Assembly (NCBI RefSeq): GCF_963921235.1
Contig: NC_086097.1
Coordinates: 10,106,001 to 10,170,000 of the forward strand
Reading direction: 5' to 3'
DNA length: 64,000 nucleotides
DNA from: Mobula hypostoma
Taxonomy: Eukaryota
Below, piece after piece: positions 1,731-63,456 of this stretch. The notes below the pieces were generated by a model. The model had not been told where the DNA came from. It worked only from the letters and a program-made list of their open reading frames with translations, and searched no databases. The translations under genes were made by a program, and so were the position numbers. How positions within the stretch are numbered: position 1 is the stretch's first letter; every line of letters begins with the position of its first letter.

Positions 1731-3295
1731 CACACTATGGCTGTAATGGAGAATAGGGAGGTTGTCGGTGAGAGAGAGAGAGAGCACCAAAACTAACCAA
1801 GTTCTAGCTAGTGAACTGAGTGCTAAGTCTTAGGAGGGGTGATACTATGGGAGGGAAGGGGAGGGATGTTAGAGGTTCACCACATTCCCACCATTGAACG
1901 TCCCTAGAGGGGTCATCTCAAAATGTCTCAGCACAGAATGGGAAGCCATGCACAGTGTCAGAAGACATGCCATGTCATAATAGGACTAATCAAAGCTGGC
2001 TGCACATCTCTGAAGTGCCGGGTTCAAATACACTAACATCACCATTACCACAGTCTCTTACATCGTCCCCCTCCCCACCTCACCCCTTTAGTGGCATTTT
2101 TCTCCTTTGTAGAGTATTTGTATGTATTTTTGGAAATAAGTTATCTGGTCAGATGCCACAGTAACATCATCACAAGCACAGTTCCTTGTTTTAGAATAAA
2201 TACCCATGTTTAAACCTTCTTTCTCTGGTAATTATTTTGAAAGTAAAACATATCCAGGAGATGCCCTCTTCTCATTGCTACTAGCAAGATGGAGGCACAG
2301 GAGCCTGAAGACACAGGCACAATATTTATTTAATGATATAGCATGGAGTAGGCTCTTTTGCCCTTTGAGCCACTCCACCCCAGCAACCCCACAATCCTGA
2401 TTAACCCGTATCTAATCACGGGACAATTTACAATGACAAATTAAGCCAGTGATATTAAACCTGATGCGGATCTGAAGAACTCGAGCAATAACAAAAAATA
2501 CATTACGATTGACAAAATCAAAATCATGTTTTACATTGAGAATGGTAAACATCATACATTTAGGAAACAGTATTTTAATGTGTAAGACTCTGAAATCCTT
2601 GTTACTGCACAGAAAATACTGGAAATACAAACTGTCATGGTTTAATCTCTTGTTTGCAAGTCGCAGTCAGCACAGCCTCCGTGATTCAGGACAAAGAAAG
2701 ACAAAGAGAATGATTAAAGCTGTACTGACTGTTTCTTATACTAAAACTTAAAAAGGAAGATCTTTATAAAACATTGGTTGCACACTAGCTAGAGTATTCT
2801 GACAACTCCTGCAATGCCGCTGGTGCCAAACTGTATCAGTCACTGTTGCTCCTTTGGGTTCATCAGATGCGTGGAGAGGGGGAGCTTACTACATGGGCAA
2901 CAGCTTGCTCTGCTGGCTTGCATATCTGGACAGCTAGAACGCAACATCCATGGTCAACTCTGACTAACAGAGGCCCCACATGCCTTTGAAGAATAAATCA
3001 CAACAATAGTGATGTATAAATGAATGTATCAGGAAAGGCGATCAATATAAGACAAGTTACTAACTGTCATTCTGTTTCAAGTCAAGTCACTTTTTATTGT
3101 CATTTCAACAATAACTGCTGGTACAGAACATAGTAAAAATGAGACAACGTTTTCCAGGACCATGGTGCTACATGAAACAGTACAAAAACTATACTGAACT
3201 ACGTAAGAAAAAACACAAAAGCTACACTAGACTACAGTCCTATCCAGGACTGCATAAAGTGCACAAAACAGTGCAGACACTACAATAAATAATAA

Positions 3296-4454
3296 TCTGT
3301 TATAATACTAAAACTCTCATGCTCTTTCTGTCTGTTTGTGGTCTCCAATTAGCGCAAACGGTGCGTTACAGCGGCACTTTTTTTGGCTAAATCGAATTAA
3401 AATGAGCTAACTTACAGAATGCAGGCAAAGTTCAGGGTTATATATTCATATAAAATTGCTCATTTGCAAAAATCAACAGGCTCCCTTTTAACCCGAGAGC
3501 CAATCCGCCATCACAGAAATCGGGACGCCACAGCCGCATGCATGCGCACAGCCAGCCTCGGCAGTGACACCTGGAGCAAAAGGGCAGGGCAGCTCTATTT
3601 CGAGTGGTTCCATTCTGCTAATCACCATCAGCATGTGCAGGATTGGGACAGATCTAACTGCCACCCATCAATAAGAGATAATTAAATCTTATTGTAATGA
3701 CGTACTTTGAGACACCCATAAAACCCTTTGCTGCAGTCAAAGGACAGCGGTGACTATATCACATACATTTAGGAGAGCGCCAACCACATCATCAAGAATA
3801 ATCAGCATCCTTTGATGTTACTACTTCGTATTTTCTATCCAGCATTAGGGTAAAAAAAATGGTCAGCCTAATTATGCCGCGTGGAAAGGGAAGGGGGACA
3901 TTATGGTCAAGAGATGATACCGAACGTCGTCGGGAAGCGGCAAGGAGAGGAAAAGAACAAGAATCAGTTGAGGCCAGGGCTGCACGACTCCAGGATCAAA
4001 GAGTCAGGACAAAAAAGGTGAGAGAAGAAGAGACAGAGGAGGAGAGGGATGCATGTCTCCAAGATGACAAAAACTGGCACAGAAGGAGGAGAGAGGAAGA
4101 GACAAAGGAGCTGAGAAATGCACATCTCCAGGATCAGAGACAAAGAATAAACAGCAGAAGAGATGAAGAAATGGGGGATGAAAGGACTGCATGTCTCCAG
4201 AATGACAACGAGAGGCACGAGGGTGGCAGATAAAGCAGAAATGATGCCATCAAAAGTGTCCTTCGTTAAATGAGGAGGAGCTATATTTGCTTTGTTACAT
4301 GTCATTCTTCTTGAAAAACTGAGGTTTTCTACTTCAGTTTCCAAAACAAAGCGATACCAATAGCATTCAGGAAAATTTAATGTACATTCTGGTCATATCA
4401 GACTGCATTACCCTCCTCTCAAAAGGGGCCCCAATGGGTCACCCCATTGTCTAG
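3296..4454 (+). mobile_element. Non-autonomous Helitron
   Basis: Starts TC (tctgttataatactaaaa) and ends CTAG (4451-4454). GC-rich hairpin just upstream (ggggccccaatgggtcacccc, 4425-4445). Inserted between A3295 and T4455 with no TSD, and the host LINE 3' UTR resumes. Confidence 0.85.
3859..4233 (+). CDS. Helitron-derived ORF with four 23-aa STPR-like repeats (RepHel N-terminus; Rep and helicase absent)
   Basis: ESVEARAARLQDQRVRTKKVREE / ETEEERDACLQDDKNWHRRRREE / ETKELRNAHLQDQRQRINSRRDE / EMGDERTACLQNDNERH: 23-aa period with an E-T/S-x-E-x-R-x-A-x-L pattern. Expression unknown. Confidence 0.6.
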   Translation: MVSLIMPRGKGRGTLWSRDDTERRREAARRGKEQESVEARAARLQDQRVRTKKVREEETEEERDACLQDDKNWHRRRREEETKELRNAHLQDQRQRINSRRDEEMGDERTACLQNDNERHEGGR

Positions 4455-5129
4455 TAAATAATAAATAAGACAGCAGGCACAGTAGAGGGTATAGTAGGTT
4501 GGTGTCAAGCCAGGTTCTAGGTATTGAGGAATCTGATGGCTTGGGGGAAGAAACTGTTACATAGTCTGGTCGTGAGAGCCCGAATGTTTTGGTGGCTTTT
4601 TCCAGATGGCAGGAGGGAGAGGAGTTTATATGAGGGGTGCATGGGGTCTTTCATAATGCTGTTTGCTTTGCGGATGCAGTGTGTGGTGTAAATGTCTGTG
4701 ATGGTGGGAAGAGAGACCCCGATGATCTTCTCAGCTGACCTCGCTATCTGCTGCAGGGTCTTGAGATCCGAGATCCAGAATATCAAATGGTATGCACGTA
4801 TCTCTTCAGAAGGCTTTGTTGAGTTGGTTTTTCATTTATTCTTTCATGGGATGTTGGTACGTGGGTAATGTCTCTGTTAACTGTCCACTCTTAATTGGCC
4901 TTGAATTGTAGAGGTAGGAGGCAAACACAATAACGTTTGGGTTCACATGTAGTCCTGACTAAGAAAAGATGGCAAATTTCCTTTGAAGGAAGACATGAGT
5001 AAACCTATTTTTTTTGACACTCTGCTGCTTATGCAACATAGAAACAGGCCTTTCAGCCACATGAATCTTCTGTCACAGTGAATGAACAGGCTTCATCTCC
5101 ACTAAACCTGTTTTCCAGCACTTGTTTGA

Positions 5130-15770: not shown

Positions 15771-16526
15771 AAAAATTAATGTTGTGAAGTGTCATTGTAC
15801 AGTGTAATTATGCCTTGTATCTGCATTTATACTGGTGCATTTTCTGAAGGTTATACAGTTACTTAATCAGCCACTAACAGTCTCAATGATAGAAACCTTG
15901 AATTCTGACGTGCACTTTAAAAATTATGTGTGTTACTCTGCTTTCAATCCTTCAACAAAAAAGTTTTCTTTTAACAGTTTGAACAGTCCTCATTACATTG
16001 ATTTACTAATTAATGATAATTCAGTAAAGAGTCAATCAGTTCCATTTTCCGTCAGTATGTACACTCCAGATACCTTCCTCCCCAATCACTTCTGACAATC
16101 TCTTCTGCAATCTTCTTTTATCTTTCATGCATCCTCTTAGTGCAACAACATTATCACACTTACAATTTACAACACAAAAGACTATTTGTTCCATCGCATC
16201 TATAGCAGAGCATTCCTTCATTCATTATGTACCATGTCGAATGACGTGGGCGATCATGGTCTTTTCATGACCATAATTGTTCTTGGCAAATTTTTCTACA
16301 AAATTGCCTTGCCATTGACTCCTTCTGGTCAGTGTCTTTACAAGACAGGTGACCCCCGCTATTATCAATACTCTTCAGAGATTGGCTGCCTGGCATCAGT
16401 GGTCTCATAATCAGGATTTGTGATATGCACCTACTGCTCATATGACCATGCACCACCTGCTCCTACAGTTTCATGTAACCCTGATCCAGGGAGCCAAGCA
16501 GATGCTATACCTTGCCTAAGTGTGAC

Positions 16527-19500
16527 ATCACACTGGTGTTCATCTCTGACCACTTCCTTCTGCGAGCCACCTGTCACTTACGGGAGGACCGGAAGGCAGG
16601 TAGGGGGATGTGGAAGCCGAACGTTAAGCTACTGACCCCAGAGAATATTAAGGAACTGGACAAGGAGTACACAGGTTGGAGAACCTTGAAAGCCTTCTTT
16701 GATTCCTCAGTTCTCTGGTGGGAAGCCAGCAAGGAGAACATCAAGAGGTTCTTCGTCCTCAAGTGTATCCAGAAAGCAAGGCAGGAGCAGAGAGAACTGT
16801 GCAAACTCCAGACAGAGTTACAGCAACTTTTTCTGCAGTCAAAGGGGGTGGATGTCAGAGAGGAATTGTGGGAGGTGAAGGGCCGGCAAGCCCAGCACTT
16901 CGCCGCCGAATACTCCAAGATCATCTACCGATCGAGGGTCCAAACCGTGGAACAGGATGAGACGTGTTCACGCTGCTTCTTCCAAAAGGTGCACAGGGGG
17001 AGCTCTGCGATCCACAACCTTACGTAAGAGGACGGCTCAGTCGCTTCCTCGCAGACAGACATACCGAGGATTTGCAGGTCCTTCTATGCCGGTCTGTACG
17101 ATGAAAAGGCCACAGACCCCACAGCCTCCCACAACTTCCTGTCGTCTATCATGCAGGTCTTAGACAACAGCAAGCGGGAGAGTCGGGATCAACCACTGAC
17201 CCTGGATGAGTTGACAGGCTCCATCCGTTCCTTTGGGTCGAATATGACTCCAGGAGGCGATGGCCTACCGGTTGAGTTGTATCAGCTCTGTGGAACTGGA
17301 TGGGCCCTGACCAGCTGGAAGTGTATAACACTATGCTTCTGGCCAGCAGCATGTCAGAATCCATGAGGAAGGGCATCATCACCCTCATCTACAAGCAGAA
17401 GGGGGAAAGGGAGGACATTTGGAATTGGAGGCCCTTCTCTCTCCTGAATGTGGACTACAAGATCCTGTCCAAGGCTAACGCCAACAGGGTCAAGTCTTCT
17501 CTGGGACAGGTTATCCACCCGGACCAAATCTGTGCTGTACTGGGCAGGAAGATCTCGGACAGCCTCGCGCTGCTGGGGGACACCATCGCCTATGTGCAGG
17601 ACAGGGGGGTGGACACCTGCTTGGTCAGCTTGGACCAGGAGAAAACCTTCGACAGGATATCGCACACGTACATGGCGGACATACTCTCCAATATTGGATT
17701 TGGGGAGGGAATCCGGAATTGGATCAGACTGCTCTACATAGACATTTGTAGTGCAGTCCAGGTCAATGGGTGGGAAACAGACAGCTTCCTCATCAGGTCT
17801 GGAGTCAGGCAGGGCTGCCCCCTCTCCCCTGTCTTGTTTGTGTGCTGCATAGAACCTTTTGCCGAAGCCACCAGGAGGGATTGAATGGAAGAATTGGATC
17901 AGCCCATGATTGAATGGTAGAGTAGACTCGATGGGCCGAATGGCCTGCTTCTGCTCCTGTATCTTATAAGAGTGGTGATGCTGCCAGGCAGTGGAGGGAT
18001 GCAAGTCAAAACCTCCCTGTACATGGACGATGTCACCGTCTTCTGCTCTGATCCGAGGTCAGTTCGCAGACTTATGGACATCTGCGTACATTTTGAGCTG
18101 ACGTCGGGGACCAAAGTCAACTGCACGAAGAGCAAAGCTATGCTCTCCGGCAACTGGCCCGACCGATCCTATGTCCCCTTCACTATCAGGTCTGACCACA
18201 TGAAGGTGTTGGGGATCTGGTTCGGAGGGGCTGAGGCGTGCAACAAGAACTAGCTGGAGGGGACTGCCAAGGTGAAACAGAAACTGGGACTGTGGGGAGA
18301 GCGCTCCCTGTCGATAACGGGAAAGAACCTGGTCATCAGGTGTGAGGTGCTCTCAGGTCTGTTGTACTTGGCGCAGGTGTGGCCCGTCCCCTGTTCCTGC
18401 AGCTTAGAAATCACCAGAGTCGTCTTCAAATTCGTCTGAGGATCGAGGATGGAGCGAGTCAGATGGACCGTCATGCACAAGTCCCTAATAATGGGGGCAA
18501 GAACGTCCCTAATGTAGCCCTCATCCAAATGGCCAGCTTTGTGTGTGGCTGCATCAGGTTGGTGTAGAACCCAGATATGTGGGCACAAAGTACCACTATG
18601 TGCCCAAGTTCTACCTGTCGCCCTGGCTACGAAGAAATGGTCTGGCCCCTTTCCCGCGCAGCACCCCTGTCAGCTGGTCGTTGCCACCATACCTGTCCTT
18701 CGTAGAAAAGTTTTTCCAGGTCAACAATTTTGACCACAGGGCTATCAGACAGTGGTCGGCAGGTAATGTCCTGCAGGCGCTGCAGGAGAAGGACAAGATG
18801 GACTTAGTGGGGTGGTTCTCTGAACAGACAGTCCAGTTCATCTGGCAAAATGCCTCATCACCAGACCTCACCAACAGGTACCAGGACCTTGCCTGGCTAG
18901 CGATGAGAGGGGCCCTCCCAGTCGATCCCTCCTGTATACCTGGAATGTCGTCTCCGCACCCTGCTGCACACGGGAGGACTGCAATGAGGTGGAGTCAGCG
19001 ACTCACCTCTTTGCACACTGTGGGTTCGCGAAGAACGTGTGGAGGAGGATGGAAGGGACGGTGTCAAGATTCATGCCCAGCAGCTGCTTAACTGAGGACT
19101 CCCTGATCTACGGGCTGTTCCCGGGGATGCACACGGAGACCAACATCCAGTGCTGCTGGCAGATCATCAACTCGGTGAAAGGTGCTCTTTGTTCTGCCCG
19201 AAACTTGGTGGTCTACCAGCACATGGAGATGTCCGTGACCGAATGTTGCCGGCTGGCACATTCTTGTCTGCAGGAATACGTGCTGAGGGACGCACTCAAA
19301 TTTGGTGCAGCCACCGCGAAGGCACAGTGGGGAAGGACCACAGTTTAAGATTCGTCACCCGTGGGAGTGGGAGGGGTCGGGTGGGGAGGAGAATAACCCT
19401 CATCAGTGGTGTGGATAGATGAATCAACATGGTGCCCCAGGAGTGGCTGGAAATGTATAGACCATAAAGGAATGAGAGTCAATGCCTGATTTTTTATTGT

Positions 19501-41857: not shown

Positions 41858-44800
41858 TCATATTCTATAAAAAACCCCTGTACCCCTTAAAAACGCTAAA
41901 AATACCCGGACTTGTGCTCTCTCACACATGCCAAGCAACCCTTTTAATGTGAATTCCTGCATCCCCAACTCCCTTAATTTATTTCTCATCATCTCTCTCT
42001 GTCTTCCCATACTTCCTGCAACACAGAACTACATGTTCTACTGACTCCTCTTCCTGACATTCCTCACACAATCCTGTATGGTGTTTCCCTATCATTTTCA
42101 ATGTTTTGTTTAATGCACAGTGCCCCAGCCTTAACCTAGTCCACACAATTTCCTCTCTTCTGTTTCCATTACCTACCCTAGTAACTGCAACACTCTTTTG
42201 TATTTGATATAAATGCCTCCCTTTCCCCTCCCTGTCCCAACTTTCTTGTCACATTCGGTTGACTTTTTCCCAGATTACACACTTAACCTTTGCTTTACTG
42301 ATACTAATGTGCATTTCCACATATTCTTTCTTTAACGCCCTCTTTGCCAACTCATCCACCCTCTCATTCCCCTTCACCCCTACCTGTGCTGGAACCCATA
42401 GAAATTTTACCTGACCTCCCTGATTTGCAATTCTTGTAACTAACTGAAGGACTTCATAAAGTACATCTTGCCAACTGCTTGTGTGAAAAGACCTTAAACT
42501 TGCTAGAACTGAGGATGAATCTGAACATATCAATGCTTTGGCTTGTCTGGCTTTCTGCACCCATTGCAACGCAACCAACACTGCCAGCATCTCCACTGTA
42601 AACACCCCTAACTTATTAGATGTTCTTCTGCTGATTCCAATTTCTTTTGCTGGTATTACCACCCCAAACCCTGTCACTCCTGTTTCAGGTTCCTTCGCAC
42701 CATCCGTATAAATGTGAGTATAATCACTATACTTTTCCATCATATGACAGTTAAATGCATTTACCAAATCTGTTTTATATCTTTCTTTCCTTTTTACCTC
42801 TAACAAATGCCAGTCTATGCAGGCCATACAAGCTTCCATGGAGCTACAACCGGATAAACTACTGAAGGACTTACCCTCAGATCAAATACTCCACATTCTT
42901 TCGCGATATCATTCCCTACCCGACTAAAGGTATCCCTCTGAAACCCATTTTCCCAGCACTCCTGCAACACTCCTTTAGTAGGGTGAGAATCATTGTGCCC
43001 CTGCAAGTTAGCCCAGTAGTTTGCCATCAGTTGCATCCTTCTTAGTTCCAAAGGCATTATTCCCATTTCTACCTGTAGGGCTGACACCGGTGACGTTTTA
43101 AAAGCCCCACTGCACACTCTCAAGGCCTGAGCCTGAATCACATCCAGTTTCCTTAAAAGAGACCTAGCTGCTGATCCATATACTATATTTCCATAATCCA
43201 GTACAGATCTTACTAAAGCCACATACATTCTCTTCAAAGCTGAACAACTTGCTCCCCATTCCCTACCAGTCAAACATCTCATCACGTTTATTATTTTTTC
43301 ACATTCCTCCTCAACTTTCCTGATATGGTCTGCCCATGTTAATCGTGAATCAAATATAACTCCCAGAAATTTAAATGATGCAACCCTTTCTAATTCAACC
43401 CCATACATCCTTAACTTCTTCCCTACCTCAACCCTTTTCCTGGTAAAAAATACAGTTTGAGTTTTGTCTACTGAAAATCTACATCCCCAATCATAACCCC
43501 ACTCCACCACTTCATCAATTGCTTCTTGTAGTTTCCTGATTATATGGTCCATGTTCCTGCCTCTTTTCCACAAGGCCCCATCATCCGCAAACAGTGACCT
43601 ACCTATATCCACTGGTACCTTTGTGAAGACATCATTGATCATAATGATGAAAAGCAACGGGCTAATCACACTACCTTGAGGTGTGCCATTTTCCATTATG
43701 TACTGTTTTGATAATTCTGATCCAATTCGAACTTGAATTTTTCTACCAAACAAAAAATCTTTAATCCAATTAAAAACTCTCCCACCAACCCCCATCTTGT
43801 GCAGTTTAATTAATAATCCTTCCTTCCACATCATATCATAGGCTTTTTCAACGTCAAAGAACACTGCCACTACTGACTCTCTATTTGCCTGGGCCTTCCT
43901 TATTTCAGTCTCTAACATAATCACTTAGTCCATGGAATTCCTTCCCTTTCTAAAACCACTCTGATAACTTGCCAGCATTCCCGTTTTCTCAAGCTCATAT
44001 GATAACCTTTCTGTCATCATCCTTTCCATTATCTTACATATACATGATGTTAATGCAATTGGTCTGTAGCTAGTGGGTTTTGACAGATCCTTGCCAGGCT
44101 TCCTTATTGGAATTTCTACTGCTTCTTTCCATGCACTTGGTAATCTTCCCTCCTCCCACACTCTGTTATAAAAATGCAGTAACTTCAAGAGCGCTCCTTT
44201 TCCTAGATTTTTTAGCATCACAGAGCATAGCAGATCTTTCCCTGGGGAGGTTGGTCTCGATCTCGTATTTGCTCTCACCATTTCTGCTAATGTAAATGGA
44301 TCATCAATTATATCATCTGTTCCTTCCCTCCTGCTTAACACACCTGGGTGTTGGCTCATTATTCTTTCCCTTCTTCTTCTCCCTTCTTCAGACAAATTTT
44401 CTGAACTGTGTATCAGTACAAATGACTTGGCCATGACCTCAGCCTTATCCCTACTGGAAACTGCAGTTTCCTCCTCAGATATCATTACTGGATATTCCCA
44501 TTCCCTTCTATCTCCTGCCATCCTCTTAATCATTCCCCATATCTCTCCCACAGGTGTTGTTCTTCCTACCTTGTCGCAAAAACTCCTCCAACTTGCCCTT
44601 TTAGCTTGATGTATAGTTCTTCTCACCACTGCCTGTGCTTTCTTATATTGAACCAAATGCTGCATATTATGGGTTCTTTTAACTAGCCCGAATGCTCTAT
44701 TTCTGTTTTTTACAGCCTGACAACATTCCTCTGTCCACCATGGTACCAGTTTCCTATTCATCCTATTTTTACTCCTAGGTATAGATCCTTCTGCTGCCAT

Positions 44801-45610
44801 GATAATTGCTGAAGTCACCTGACTGTTTAATTCATCTACATTTCCAGAAATATCAATCTTTGTCAACCCTTCTTCACTCAACTTCTGGAACTTACCCCAA
44901 TCAGCTTTTTCAAACACCCATTTTGGGGTTCCGCCACCTGGTCTTACTTCAACTCTTTCACCCACTGAACACAAAACTGGGTGGTGATCACTGCCTACCG
45001 TTGAAGCAGTCCAAACTCCCCAGTTACTAATGCCAGCCAAGGTATTAGACACTAACGTAATATCTAACACTGACTCAATTCCTGTTGTTATATCTATCCT
45101 TGTGCCGCTACCATCATTCATACACACCAAATCCCTTTCTTCCATCAAATCTTCAATTACCTTTCCATTTGGATCTGTAATCTGATCCCCCCATATTGTG
45201 CTATGAGCATTGAAATCTGCACACCACACTACTTTATGTCTGTTTTGTCCTTGTATCTTTAATAGGCTGTCCAAATCCAACCTTTTACATGGATTGTAGT
45301 AGTTAATTATAACCACTCCCTCCCCTCTCTCCCACACTTCCACCACTATGTATTCCTGATCATCTCCTTTTTCCAGTACCCTATATTGTATACCTTGCTT
45401 GATTAACATAACACAACCCCCTCCTCCCCCTAGATTTCTATCTTTCCTTATCATTGTATACCCATATACCACAAAGTCTAAAGTTGGTTTCAACCAAGTT
45501 TCCTGAATATACACTACATCTGGTTTTACGACCATTTCTTTCATAAAGTGCTTAAATTCCTGGCTATTGGCCAGTAAGCTCCTTGCATTCCATTGTAAAA
45601 GAATAACCAT
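41858..45610 (-). pseudogene. ORF2 APE endonuclease-RT-RNase H-zinc knuckle, four lesions
   Basis: LQWNARS, IQETWL, ADFNAH, GSDH; YRPIALTS, FFDVEKAYD, QGSVISP, LFADD; YTDGAK, CSDSSS, GNERVDELAK; TRLRLGH..CEEC..EHVVLCC. Stops at 43925-43927 and 42249-42251, frameshifts at about 42820 and 42003. Confidence 0.93.
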
Positions 45611-45618
45611 AATTAATA

Positions 45619-46851
45619 TTAACCAACACATGACACTTCCTGGCTTGACTGATTACTGAGGTTCTCCCTCACTTCCTCCCATGTCAGTCCTACTAACACT
45701 AAATGGTTTACTGCTGCTTTTACCACCAGCTGAATTTTGTCACTTTTTGACTTTACCTCAGCCGTACTATTATTCACTCCTGCAATGAATGTTACTAGAG
45801 CCTTTTTGTCTACATAAATCCTGTCATTTGTTCTTTGTTGCATCTCTCGTATCCCTATTGCTCCCTGTTCATTAGGAGCATTATTCTGTTCTCTTGACAT
45901 TCGTACAGCTTCTGCATAAGTGATCTTTCTTTTCACTCTTATTTCTTGAATTTTAGTCTCCCGTCTCACAACCTCACACCCACTATATGCAACATTATGA
46001 GCTCCTCCACAATTGCAGCATTTTGGTTGAACTCCTGTTCCGCACTTTCCATATTTATGATCACCCCCACATCTAGCACATCTCCTCTGCCTTTTACAGT
46101 TTTTAGCCACGTGTCCAAACCTTTGACAATTATAGCACCTCAGTGGCTTTGGCACATACACCCTTACTGGGTAACTCATGAAACCCAGGAACAGCTTCCT
46201 TGGCACTCTTTCTTCTTCAAATTCAATCAATACTGATTCACTTTCCTTTTTCACTCCCTCCTTTGTTGTTTTCAGTCTTTGAACATTCATTACTTTCCCT
46301 CCTTTGATATTCCTCTTTATCTCCTCCATATTTATACTCATTGGTATCCCTTTGATCCCTCCTTTACAACCACTGTTTTGTGCTCCCACCCTCCCAGCGT
46401 ATTCCACCTTGCATTTTCCTATCTCTTTTAGCTTGAGTGCTTTCTCAAGTTGTTCCTCATTCGCACATCTTACCAATAAGTTGCCATCATTAAGGACTTC
46501 TGCAAATACTATTTCCCCTATCTTATTTGTCAGAGTTGTTGTTAGCACAAACAGGTTAATTTCCTTCATATGTCCCTGAGCCTTCTCATTAAACCTAATT
46601 ATGACAACACCCCCTCTCTGAGCTTGTTCATCTTCCTCACTTTCAGAGCTTTCTCCACTATCATTTCTTATTCTTTTATTCCCTTTGTCTTGGTTTTTAT
46701 TCATCCGACCCCTCACTACCTCCTTATTCCCTTTATTTCTCCCTTCACAATAATCCACCTCTCCCCAGCTGCCTACCTCTGGTCCCAAGTCTCTATCCCT
46801 CTCCTTCTCCACTTTCTTTCCCTGAACCCCACCTCTTATCTTGTCTGCCAT
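45619..46851 (-). CDS. ORF1 gag-like nucleic-acid-binding protein with three CCHC knuckles (410 aa from MADK)
   Basis: Uninterrupted frame with CYNCQRFGHVAKNC, CARCGGDHKYGKC and CCNCGGAHNVAYSGC. The track's ATG at 47007 lies in the TSD, so ATG 46851 is the likely start. Confidence 0.9.
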   Translation of the reverse strand: MADKIRGGVQGKKVEKERDRDLGPEVGSWGEVDYCEGRNKGNKEVVRGRMNKNQDKGNKRIRNDSGESSESEEDEQAQRGGVVIIRFNEKAQGHMKEINLFVLTTTLTNKIGEIVFAEVLNDGNLLVRCANEEQLEKALKLKEIGKCKVEYAGRVGAQNSGCKGGIKGIPMSINMEEIKRNIKGGKVMNVQRLKTTKEGVKKESESVLIEFEEERVPRKLFLGFMSYPVRVYVPKPLRCYNCQRFGHVAKNCKRQRRCARCGGDHKYGKCGTGVQPKCCNCGGAHNVAYSGCEVVRRETKIQEIRVKRKITYAEAVRMSREQNNAPNEQGAIGIREMQQRTNDRIYVDKKALVTFIAGVNNSTAEVKSKSDKIQLVVKAAVNHLVLVGLTWEEVRENLSNQSSQEVSCVG

Positions 46852-47809
46852 TACCGGACCCACACGACCCCCTCCCAGCAATTTCCGTTCCTTCCCCACT
46901 CTCTTTCCCTCAACAGGTTCCAAACCACAATCACGCATCAAGCAAAACACAGCCAGCTTCCAGTCGAGCCAACTCCGGCCCAGCACGGGACTCCGCTGTC
47001 CATACACAATTATGCCCTGTAACTGATACTAAACACTATTGAGCATTTATTCTCAGCCATCCAGAACCCAGCACTGATTTTTAAACATGATGGCATTTAT
47101 TGGCACTTCCATGCTAACAATAATGTCCAATTTAGTCTGATCACTGCAAACCATGTGTGACTTTCGTTTATACGTTCAGGTCACTTCCTTACCATCACAT
47201 ATCCTGTAATTATATTGCACATGTGTTCTTAGGACTGTATGGGAACACTTTTCCATATTTGTCCAGTCAAAAAGCCATAATTGCTTGCATGTTTCAGAGA
47301 GGATCACTTCCCTACTGCTCCTCCAGTTCCGGGGATTGAAACCTAAACCGTCCACCTGGCAGTGATAAGGTGCAAGGCCACCCCAGCAAATTCAGTATCC
47401 GGAACTGAAAGCTGGACTCAATTGTTTGATACATAACAAGCTGAAACACAAACAAAAATTGCTCTGCAACAATTGTAAGGAAATATAAAGCCAATTAGGC
47501 CATATTATAATGCCACATTGAATAGAAGGAAATGTTAGCATCCTTCAGGAGGCTTCATTATGAGAGGATAAATGTTATTAAAGCTCATAATTGCAATCAA
47601 TCTTTAATAAATTGGTTCCACACTTGAGATCACTATTTTCTTCATCAGCTCACTTAACACTGTTAACTCAGTTGGGCCACTGGGGTGTTTTGGCATTTTA
47701 AAGTTCCTTTCTCTAATAAAATAGGGGTGTTTGCCTATTTTATAAGGCTCTAATAATTGGCATTTTGCTGATATGTTATTCTTGCAGTTCTTTAAGGTGG
47801 TAGTGGAGA

Positions 47810-61125: not shown

Positions 61126-63255
61126 AATTGGTGCTGACTACAAACCTGAATGCCAGAAAATATCACTAACTGCACTGACAGTTATCGGACAAAACTGTAA
61201 GAGTTAAACAACACGAGAAGACTGTCACAGACACCAAAAAATGCATAAGTACAGCGTATAGTAACAGGGAAAGACTTTCTGAATTTAAAGTTAAACTAAC
61301 TAACTGATGGCTTCAGTCGGAAAAGTTGACAAATTTCATAGTGCTAATGAAGGCTGGGAGTCATATTTCAAGAGAGTTGAACTGTATTGTAATGCCAACA
61401 ACATGGAGGAGCAAAAGAAAACCCCTACACTTCTTAGCTTAATGGGTGCAAGAACATACAGTCTCTTACACAACTTAGTATCCCCCGAAAAGACAGCAAG
61501 CAAGATGTTCAACAAAATATCAGAATCAGAATCAGGTTTATTACCATCGGCATGGGACGTGAAATTTGTTAACTTAGCAGCAGCAAGACAAAAAACACAA
61601 CTGAGTGAAAAGTCTCAAGCACAAAACAAGCAAATAAGTACAGTTTCCAAATGTAAAGCAGAATCAGACAACATGGAGTCTGACAAAGGTGAACTGTCAT
61701 GCCTAGAACTGCGTAGTATAACTGAAGCAGATCACAAAATCATCTAATCACAATAGATGTGCCTGGTGTAAAACTGAAAATGGAGCTGGATACAGGGTCA
61801 ACTTTGCCCATAATTCCAGAGGCTCACTACAACAGCCTGCTTTCTGAGATACCATTAGAGAAGACCTCAGTGATGTTAAAGACCTACACAGGCAAAAAAG
61901 TCCCTCCCAAAGCCAAACTGAAGGTGAGTATGATATATGGAGGCCAAAGACAGCGGTCAGAAATTGGTTGAATGGTTGAGAAAAATCCAGCTATACTGGC
62001 ACTCAATCAAAGCTCTCAGTGTGGCATCATAGGCAACTGAAGCCCAACTGGTGGCACTAACCAGAGACTAGCATGGCTGCTTAATACTAATCAAAAGGTG
62101 CTTGAGAAGGCAATGGATAAATAGATAGAAGACTTGGCCAAAACCCGCTTGGGATATCGGAAAGTTCAAAATATACCCTAACAGGTACCATTACACCCAT
62201 GGGACTGGCCCTCTTCACCATGGCAAAGAGTACTTATTGACTTTTCTGGGACATTCATGGACTCCATGTTTTTGATTGCTGTAGATGTTCTTTTGAAGTA
62301 GCCGGAGGTTATATCAATGAAGTCAAACAAGTCAGCAAAGACTTTCTGTGCTCTGAGGATTAGCTTCATCAGAGTGGCTTACCAGGATAAATTGTGAGTG
62401 ACAATGGACCACAATACAAGTCAGAAGATTTCCAACTGTTCATGACGAAAAATGGCATTAGACATTTCAAGTCAGCTCCTCAAGACCCAGCAATGAGTGG
62501 GTTAGCTGAAACATTTATCTAAATCTTCGAGAAGTCCATTAAAGCTATAGACAAGGAGGACATTTCTCTACAGCACAAGGTGGACAACTTCCTTTCTGTG
62601 TGTCAGAACTCTGTTTATACAATGATAAATCAAGCACCTGCAATGCTGTTCATGAACAGGAATCAGAGGTCTCGCATAGGCCTCCTGAAACCAGATCTAC
62701 GAAGAGAAGTGCAGAATAATCAGTTCAGCCAATTGTCAAGTGAAGCAGCAAGGAGCATCGAGATTGGACAGGAAGTACTCATGTGTGATTACTGAGAAGA
62801 CAAGTGGACATCCAGTAGGATAGCTACAAGAACTGGACCACTGAAGTACATGGTGGATGTTGGAGATCAGACATGGAGTCATCATGTGGACCACATATTG
62901 GATGCTCAACCAAAGAACACACCTGAGTCTATTGCATCCAATAAGACAGACACATTACAGTTACCAGACTTAACTCTCAGTGATGATCATATCGCTGACA
63001 ACAACGTGATACCAGAAACTGAGAACATTATCGTTGACAAGAGACCCGTCATTCCTAGACCCACTCCACAAGCCCAGAGGCACTATTCTGAAAGAAACAG
63101 AGTGCCACCCAAAAGACTGAACCTTGAGAACTGTGAAGCTGTTATGGACTGTTATTGTGAAAGCATGTTTATTTGGAATATGGATTTATGCAAGAGAAAT
63201 TGGATGTTTTGTACATATACAGTTTTATGGTTCATTATTCTAAAGGGGGGGGAAG

Positions 63256-63456
63256 TGTAATGTATGGATCTATATCTTTTACAGCACCCCTCCCCTTAGT
63301 GCAATGTATTGATCTGTTGCCAGTGTATGCGCTGCGATCTACCCATGGACATTGTTCTCTCTCTCACTCACATTGCAATGTGAATACACCAGTTAAAGCC
63401 ACCTCCTCCATGTGTGCTTTTATTTAGTTGATATGTAGTTGTGTACAGACACAACA
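63256..63456 (+). repeat. 3' LTR of the Gypsy element
   Basis: Follows the polypurine tract at 63242-63255; TG..CA ends; clearly diverged from the 5' LTR. Confidence 0.9.

Follow-up and report, generated by a model that had tools for sequence, protein, structure and literature searches.

In Helitron transposition, the RepHel transposase acts in trans, nicking an element at its 5' TC, displacing one strand, stopping at the hairpin and CTAG of the 3' end and pasting the strand between an A and a T. Because the ends alone are needed in cis, whatever lies inside an element is a passenger. Why, then, does a short Helitron in the window (the whole 64,000-nucleotide stretch of ray DNA analysed here) carry a stop-free frame of 124 codons with four repeats resembling the STPR DNA-binding domain? 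The first-pass annotation saw in this frame a small DNA-binding peptide, possibly a dominant-negative regulator of transposition or raw material for domestication. We consider it probable that the element is one of many copies of a non-autonomous Helitron1 whose frame is a decaying RepHel start, and that the same STPR-like segment was domesticated in advanced snakes after a probable transfer.

Ends, copies and short form of the element

The element occupies positions 3296..4454 of the forward strand (1,159 bp) as a non-autonomous Helitron1 (HLE1) copy. Its 5' terminus is TC (3296..3297) and its 3' terminus CTAG (4451..4454), in agreement with the CTRR pattern, and it lies between A(3295) and T(4455) without target duplication, as established at the 3295/4455 site alone. 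A loose scan for the 3' signal gave one match per strand in 64 kb, and the ends by themselves are not unique. The family was surveyed through contigs of public sequencing runs, and four of the 24 listed runs (X1, X11, X15 and X20; at most three samples) were compared with positions 3000-4750. Three contigs of run X1 join 3295 to 4455 as an empty site, skipping 1,159 letters with the ends TC..AG, the letters between not being known. Additional joints terminate at 4455, and in three of the four runs (X1, X11 and X20) loose ends at 3295 go on in right-flank-like sequence. The empty-site joints and the depth steps at both ends settle the element boundaries, and the termini and duplication-free A|T insertion reported by the first-pass annotation hold at their exact coordinates.

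The insertion lies in the tail of a LINE-like repeat, presumably Rex1-like and on the reverse strand, that is far more abundant than the element and is cleanly interrupted by it. The left part of the target (3077..3295) is the 3' tail of this very high-copy repeat, as recognized from depth and from loose ends at 3077 and 3092. The right part (4455..4831) continues the same repeat and contains a 104-codon frame remnant at 4517-4831 with no significant Pfam match. Within the 64-kb window no second copy of the element was found; a search against Rfam gave 0 matches, and AATAAA is absent between the stop of the frame and the element end. An antisense frame of 142 aa (3964-4392) had no Pfam match and was taken as a shadow of the purine-rich strand.

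The annotation had also noted a subterminal hairpin, and one is present about 10 nt from the end, although the 7-pair hairpin at 4432..4449 (-6.3 kcal/mol) into which the window copy folds is an alternative and probably not the family's own. At 4424 and 4427, other copies have G and T, respectively, in about 95-97% of the depth of X1 and X11. With these majority letters, positions 4424..4444 form a palindrome whose 9-pair stem pairs at 8/9 positions and encloses a loop of 3 nt; it lies 10 nt from the end. Since the same stem drops to 6/9 pairs in the window copy, its terminator is eroded. In Helraiser, the corresponding palindrome is described as 19 bp long, located 11 nt from the end and acting as terminator (PMC4778049).

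In these respects, the element resembles HelibatN1-3, which are mobilized by Helraiser (PMC4778049), and Heli1Xen1 and Heli1Xen2 of Xenopus (PMC12001565), which are reported to have the same TC/CTAG termini and A|T insertion, no RepHel, many copies, and a palindrome of about 20 nt with a 3-nt loop 10-11 nt from the end. Unlike them, the present element keeps an in-frame STPR-like transposase start, and its host is a ray. The whole words shark, snake and STPR are absent from the main text of the Xenopus Helitron paper (PMC12001565).

Parts of the element are present in 20/24 listed runs, covering seven organisms and nine studies; none holds half of it, the best run containing 43% of its 31-mers. 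Each of the 19 element bins is covered in 4/4 compared runs, with none of the listed pieces reaching from one end of the element to the other. The median summed depth divided by the median depth of the listed single contigs is about 3,600 in X1 and about 480 in X11, values that give an order of magnitude and no copy number. Very roughly, the family comprises hundreds to thousands of copies in several organisms. Element depth relative to the flanking LINE-like repeat is 0.22 in X1, 0.006 in X11 (DNA) and 0.007 in X20 (RNA, a guess); X15 is flagged as probably DNA, no RNA run is listed among those containing the element, and such contig depth ratios speak neither for nor against expression. Letters at 4291, 3533 and 3535 that are close to fixation in one of the two organisms do not occur in the other (X1 versus X11). 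Together with the depth ratios of 0.22 and 0.006, these organism-specific letters suggest lineage-specific bursts of the family. The window copy itself differs from its kin by 3-7%.

The short form is the common form and is shared between organisms, because contigs of X11 and X20 (records 15, 16 and 27) cross the end of the frame into the 3' part and almost none run on into unlike sequence (shares of 0, 0, 0.06 and 0.01 in the four runs). The claim of a non-autonomous family is thereby substantiated as a multi-copy Helitron1 held by several organisms, with RepHel absent from the short form. An autonomous RepHel partner with the same ends was not found in the protein or contig collections, and a search for homologs of nearly the same length confirmed 0/100 candidates. 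The 3'-end pattern gave 0 matches in metagenomes and 0 in viral contigs, and one match in a bacterial MAG (L001) was rejected as a 19-bp chance match. Scans for related loci likewise confirmed 0/60 and 0/227 viral stretches, 0/121 prokaryote genomes and 0/403 metagenomes.

A separate observation concerns positions 3472-3589, where depth drops steeply inside the element in 4/4 runs. This part is rich in GC and CpG and contains organism-specific letters; it is perhaps the most variable part of the element or a subfamily marker.

The repeat-bearing frame and its probable RepHel origin

The 5' non-coding part of the element (3298..3858), covered in 4/4 runs, consists of the left terminal sequence and a presumed transposase promoter with 5' UTR. 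It is followed by the stop-free frame at 3859..4233 (ATG to TAA, 124 aa), in which repeats start at aa 35, 58, 81 and 104. The four 23-aa repeats noted at first were thus recovered, with the correction that the fourth has 21 aa. Repeat 1 (3961..4029, aa 35-57) has an intact arginine at its position 9 (Arg9, CGA). In repeat 2 (4030..4098, aa 58-80), Arg9 is replaced by Cys (TGT) and Arg16 by Trp (TGG), and in repeat 3 (4099..4167, aa 81-103) Arg9 is replaced by His (CAT), where other copies mostly have CGT at 4123-4125. Repeat 4 (4168..4230, aa 104-124) has Met for Thr2 and Cys (TGT) for Arg9. The ETxEERxxRL motif is thus not intact in these STPR-like repeats, since position 9 reads R, C, H, C.

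The AlphaFold2 model of the frame consists of four helices interrupted at the repeat starts (pLDDT 78), and together with the sequence register it agrees with the tandem 23-residue helical repeats that define STPR. The proposed profile search of the frame for STPR gave no match to Pfam PF21107 (gathering score 27) even at E<=1, and the snake protein from Notechis had none at E<=0.1. Relatives from snakes and from Logan score 14-22 bits against PF21107, and the distant proteins P0006 (28.6) and P0007 (32.8) pass the threshold. A phmmer search of the frame against PDB returned noise alone (E>=0.69), and Foldseek with its model gave 0 matches. A profile built from the frame and four relatives had FMBP-1 (5d23) as its sole PDB match (E 0.0045). 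One ESM Atlas cluster at 0.82 is a lead at best. The frame has no Pfam family of any kind at E<=1, in line with the reported absence of HUH-Rep and helicase motifs.

The STPR domain of Bombyx mori FMBP-1 (5D23/5D2Q/5D2S; PF21107) is described as four 23-residue helical repeats of the same kind, with family residues Glu1, Thr2, Arg6, Arg9 and Leu10 (PMC4856987); the window copy differs in lacking Arg9 in repeats 2-4 and any Pfam match. At the base-reading positions 13, 14, 16, 17 and 21, the ray frame has D/Q, R/K, R, T/Q/H and R, as compared to M, S, Y, A and L in FMBP-1. Because these positions are charged or polar here, any DNA target would differ from that of FMBP-1.

The origin of the frame is best seen from its relatives. 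A search of 1.84 billion protein representatives returned six proteins. In the unspliced relative P0003, the repeats run on to a GAM..CPHC segment, the counterpart in alignment of the zinc motif in P0006 and P0008. Over this motif, P0006 matches Helraiser (7lcc, E 1.9e-5), and UniRef gives the P0008 cluster the name Helitron helicase-like. The tie between STPR-like repeats and a RepHel N-terminus, which the annotation had named, is thus borne out, and the window frame is likely the first part of a RepHel transposase frame that was truncated after repeat 4. HELIANO reports STPR as nearly confined to HLE1, in keeping with the ray element (PMC11417382). It also places STPR among 17 domains found in ORFs separate from RepHel, whereas P0003, P0006 and P0008 are each one frame into the zinc motif.

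The parent element would accordingly have encoded, in a single frame, four STPR repeats, a linker, a GxMxxxCxxC zinc motif and the Rep and helicase parts. Deletion of the stretch between the end of repeat 4 and the vicinity of the 3' terminus would have produced a 1.16-kb master. This deletion is deduced via relatives because the autonomous parent was not found, and its junction is placed at the end of repeat 4 because likeness to the snake proteins and other relatives stops near residue 120. The same geometry explains a frame that 'keeps only' STPR. Downstream of the TAA, 11 codons and a stop continue in frame (4234..4269), which we take to be possibly the final codons of the lost helicase; the frame read through its stop with X had 0 matches in PDB, this segment included. 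At the other end, the homologous start is the second ATG at 3874 (MPRGK). Likeness to a snake-type copy begins still further 5', with 6/12 codon-equivalents preceding MPRGK identical in translation. The first ATG, at 3859, stands opposite a Thr and possibly arose by a CpG change.

A side observation concerns P0007 (Eumeta, GBP33268), in which a Helitron N-terminus carries numerous STPR repeats under the annotation 'Zinc finger protein 821'. The label is a hint that databases mix up host factors of STPR type with the starts of Helitrons, and that the two may have a common origin.

Snake gene models with four repeats

The closest relatives of the window frame are gene models of Thamnophis sirtalis, Ahaetulla prasina (two isoforms), Notechis scutatus, Crotalus tigris and C. 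adamanteus (P0001, P0004/P0009, P0027, P0012 and P0005; XP_013920868, XP_058029734, XP_026543133, XP_039192464 and KAK9405686), five species that include viperids, an elapid and colubrids. Each model has four complete repeats, with 53-60/90 residues identical to the window frame, then the Helitron linker and then host sequence. In 4/5 models, the junction lies at WCN.SA[EQ], the point at which P0003 instead enters the zinc motif, and the same junction occurs in viperid, elapid and two colubrid lineages. These predicted gene models thus place a transposase segment in frame with host exons. The host part also begins exon-less paralogs (P0014-P0020 and P0028), among them one in Liasis, a relative of pythons. 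A weak C2H2 match (E 0.037) lies at the end of one paralog, and no KRAB or SCAN match was found by Pfam in the host part, which we presume to resemble squamate SCAN/KRAB zinc-finger linkers. In the structure model of P0004, confidence is high for the repeat helices and low for the tail. The fusion models are misnamed in databases as RNA-binding protein 25-like, glutamic acid-rich and similar.

The repeats of these proteins vary less than the rest (26/92 versus 113/254, p 0.0065). In a comparison of four lineages, each represented by a single protein (C. adamanteus was omitted because a congener was already included), positions defined in FMBP-1 and named beforehand are invariant in 41/44 columns, compared with 25/48 of the others (Fisher p 1.6e-5, the species not being independent). 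Arg9 is kept in 20/20 repeats of the five species. Further, on the assumption that snakes started from the codons of the ray element, CpG-type arginine codons changed in 7/15 cases before the repeats (one change probably shared by descent) and in 0/20 inside them. Seen at the protein level and from gene models, this pattern is strong and would fit purifying selection on the transposase part.

We therefore regard the STPR-like segment as likely domesticated in advanced snakes as a host-fusion exon. A longer copy would have landed in a degenerate zinc-finger-type gene cluster before the viper/elapid/colubrid split, and its exon is predicted to splice just upstream of the zinc motif onto a host exon. 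The product would combine a Helitron DNA-binding arm with a mostly disordered host tail. The suggestion that the frame is raw material for domestication appears true of the family, in snakes, and does not apply to the window locus.

One alternative leaves the ray element as just described and explains the snake fusion as neutral exonization, or as a gene-prediction product, of an old intronic Helitron fragment. The fusion is predicted from gene models, and 5/10 advanced-snake species returned lack an intact four-repeat model when the best 8,000 candidates are scored. Among these candidates, the Pseudonaja models begin after repeat 4, Pantherophis has one in-frame model with one repeat and one exon-less model, and Naja, Ophiophagus and C. 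horridus have exon-less paralogs alone. The forms in Pseudonaja and Pantherophis, which look broken or reduced, speak for this alternative. It is nevertheless unlikely in view of the junction common to the snake lineages, the invariant columns and the absence of CpG-arginine loss inside the repeats, and of neutral simulations in which a 124-codon frame stays open in only 0.4-2% of cases at 10-15% divergence. A further Pantherophis model (P0002, XP_034269039) equals the fusion minus exactly 69 residues, or three repeats, in frame, with a more divergent host part; it could represent a duplicated copy, an allele produced by slippage or a collapse in the assembly.

Domestication of the snake segment, as preferred here, has parallels in the tetrapod fusions of Cosby et al. 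(10.1101/2020.05.07.082677), in which the DNA-binding part of a transposase is reported to be spliced to host regulatory exons, often of zinc-finger genes. The snake case differs in that the donor is a rolling-circle element and the domain STPR-like. The terms Helitron, snake, squamate and STPR each have 0 occurrences in the main text of that paper. In our literature search, STPR appeared with Helitron in the two versions of HELIANO alone and no snake fusion was found; most subscription papers lie outside its scope, and it is no proof of novelty. A review of snake repeats (PMC8303610) has Helitron in the reference list alone.

Decay of the window copy and probable transfer between lineages

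In the window copy, unlike in the snake proteins, Glu1 and Arg9 are not conserved in each repeat. Single CpG changes account for five of its differences from the snake majority, and 5/5 fall at positions named in the FMBP-1 structure. As a point against the snake reading, the window copy, too, shows a weak excess at the named positions (34/44 versus 26/46, p 0.046). After insertion, methyl-CpG decay would have removed the DNA-contacting arginines from this copy. Codon 89 is CGT in other copies at 89% of depth in X1, 59% in X11 and 74% in X20. An ancestral arginine is also inferred at codons 66 and 112, which, like the stop, are not among the 40 selected rows of about 300 in which letter differences were compared. 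These rows contain seven differences in the frame, of which six change a residue and four restore the snake residue, H89->R included.

In FMBP-1, Arg6 and Arg9 of repeats 2-4 are described as touching phosphates (PMC4856987), and R9A in repeat 2, 3 or 4, not in repeat 1, is reported to abolish stable binding in cells (PMC4821344). By analogy, the window peptide, even if made, would not be expected to bind DNA stably, because Arg9 is lost from the very repeats in which FMBP-1 needs it. Nor does the open frame require selection, since 31%, 15% and 7% of neutral copies stay free of stops and frameshifts at 3, 5 and 7% divergence in a simulation with assumed rates. The window frame is thus likely a decaying leftover of the DNA-binding start of a transposase. 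Given the lost arginines, the missing Pfam STPR match and the mostly residue-changing differences, the idea of a working DNA-binding peptide or dominant-negative regulator is left unsupported.

That idea could be moved from the copy to the family, in that the mini-elements of rays would serve to produce STPR as a free peptide, which would bind the ends of Helitrons and either dampen or promote transposition, with the window copy as a dead member. The break appears to coincide almost exactly with the end of the four-repeat domain, something not predicted of a neutral deletion, and the upstream 560 bp are kept. Majority letters at codons 37 and 89 are of STPR type, and the stop, not being listed among the near-fixed differences (40 of about 300), may be family-wide. 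Against this, it is established logic that a peptide acting in trans gives the copy that encodes it no advantage in cis. The frame is also damaged in other copies, with a frameshifting +A at 4010 in 40 X1 contigs and deletions through the ORF in single contigs (3600->4179, 3811->4176 and 3917->4188), and arginine at codon 89 reaches just 59% in X11. With Arg9 gone from repeats 2-4 of the window copy as well, we consider a regulator family quite improbable and read the frame as a decaying RepHel start.

The likeness between ray and snakes bears on how the segment reached both lineages. The window frame is 60-65% identical to the snake proteins and 32-41% to other STPR proteins, and the likeness extends 5' of the start codon into non-coding sequence. 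Because such identity would hardly persist by descent over the time since sharks and tetrapods split, a Helitron transfer between cartilaginous-fish and snake lineages, perhaps via a third host, is likely. Helitron transfer has been reported among reptiles, amphibians and ray-finned fishes (PMC12001565), and transfer among vertebrates and Heligloria fragments in snakes are noted elsewhere (PMC2997563). Vertical descent of one Helitron lineage in cartilaginous fishes and squamates, its N-terminus held by selection for transposition, is very improbable despite the fact that transposase domains are selected while elements are active and that the repeat-domain tree (7/10 inner branches open, window-plus-snake clade unsupported) favours neither side, since the excess identity reaches into the 5' non-coding part, no other vertebrate match occurs among 1.8 billion protein representatives and vertebrate Helitron transfer is documented (PMC12001565, PMC2997563).

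On its own, the window copy is an ordinary dead mini-Helitron. Its value is that of a neutral control and a source marker for the snake gene, as over the same 92 residues CpG arginines decay in the ray copy and are kept in snakes. A more far-reaching picture, which we put forward tentatively and hold at somewhat less than even chances, is that a Helitron crossed between cartilaginous fishes and snakes, gave rise to thousands of mini-elements in rays, and had its STPR arm spliced to a finger-less gene of a zinc-finger cluster in the ancestor of vipers, cobras and colubrids, yielding a snake-specific DNA-binding regulator possibly aimed at Helitron ends. If true, the snake fusion would be a living model for the emergence of FMBP-1 and other STPR factors from Helitrons. 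If confirmed, it would be a gene formed by capture of a rolling-circle transposase, a class not found among published fusions, and would add a cartilaginous fish-snake link to the record of Helitron transfer. As the code of the STPR module is solved (one helix per 4 bp), the snake domain is directly testable.

The surroundings of the element are a mosaic of old LINE fragments, of types in keeping with a ray host, and no host gene is evident among the 41 frames of at least 120 codons in 1-64000. On the forward strand, a fragmented ORF2, presumably L1/Tx1-like, lies at 16485-19348, and degraded remnants of an LTR retrotransposon with gag-like and integrase-end-like frames, which we take to be gypsy-type, lie at 61304-63260. 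On the reverse strand, 42249-47028 is a nearly whole non-LTR retrotransposon, assumed here to be I/Nimb-like, with a gag-like zinc-knuckle ORF1 and an ORF2 for endonuclease, RT and RNase H that is interrupted by a few stops and one frameshift; the element looks younger than its neighbours.
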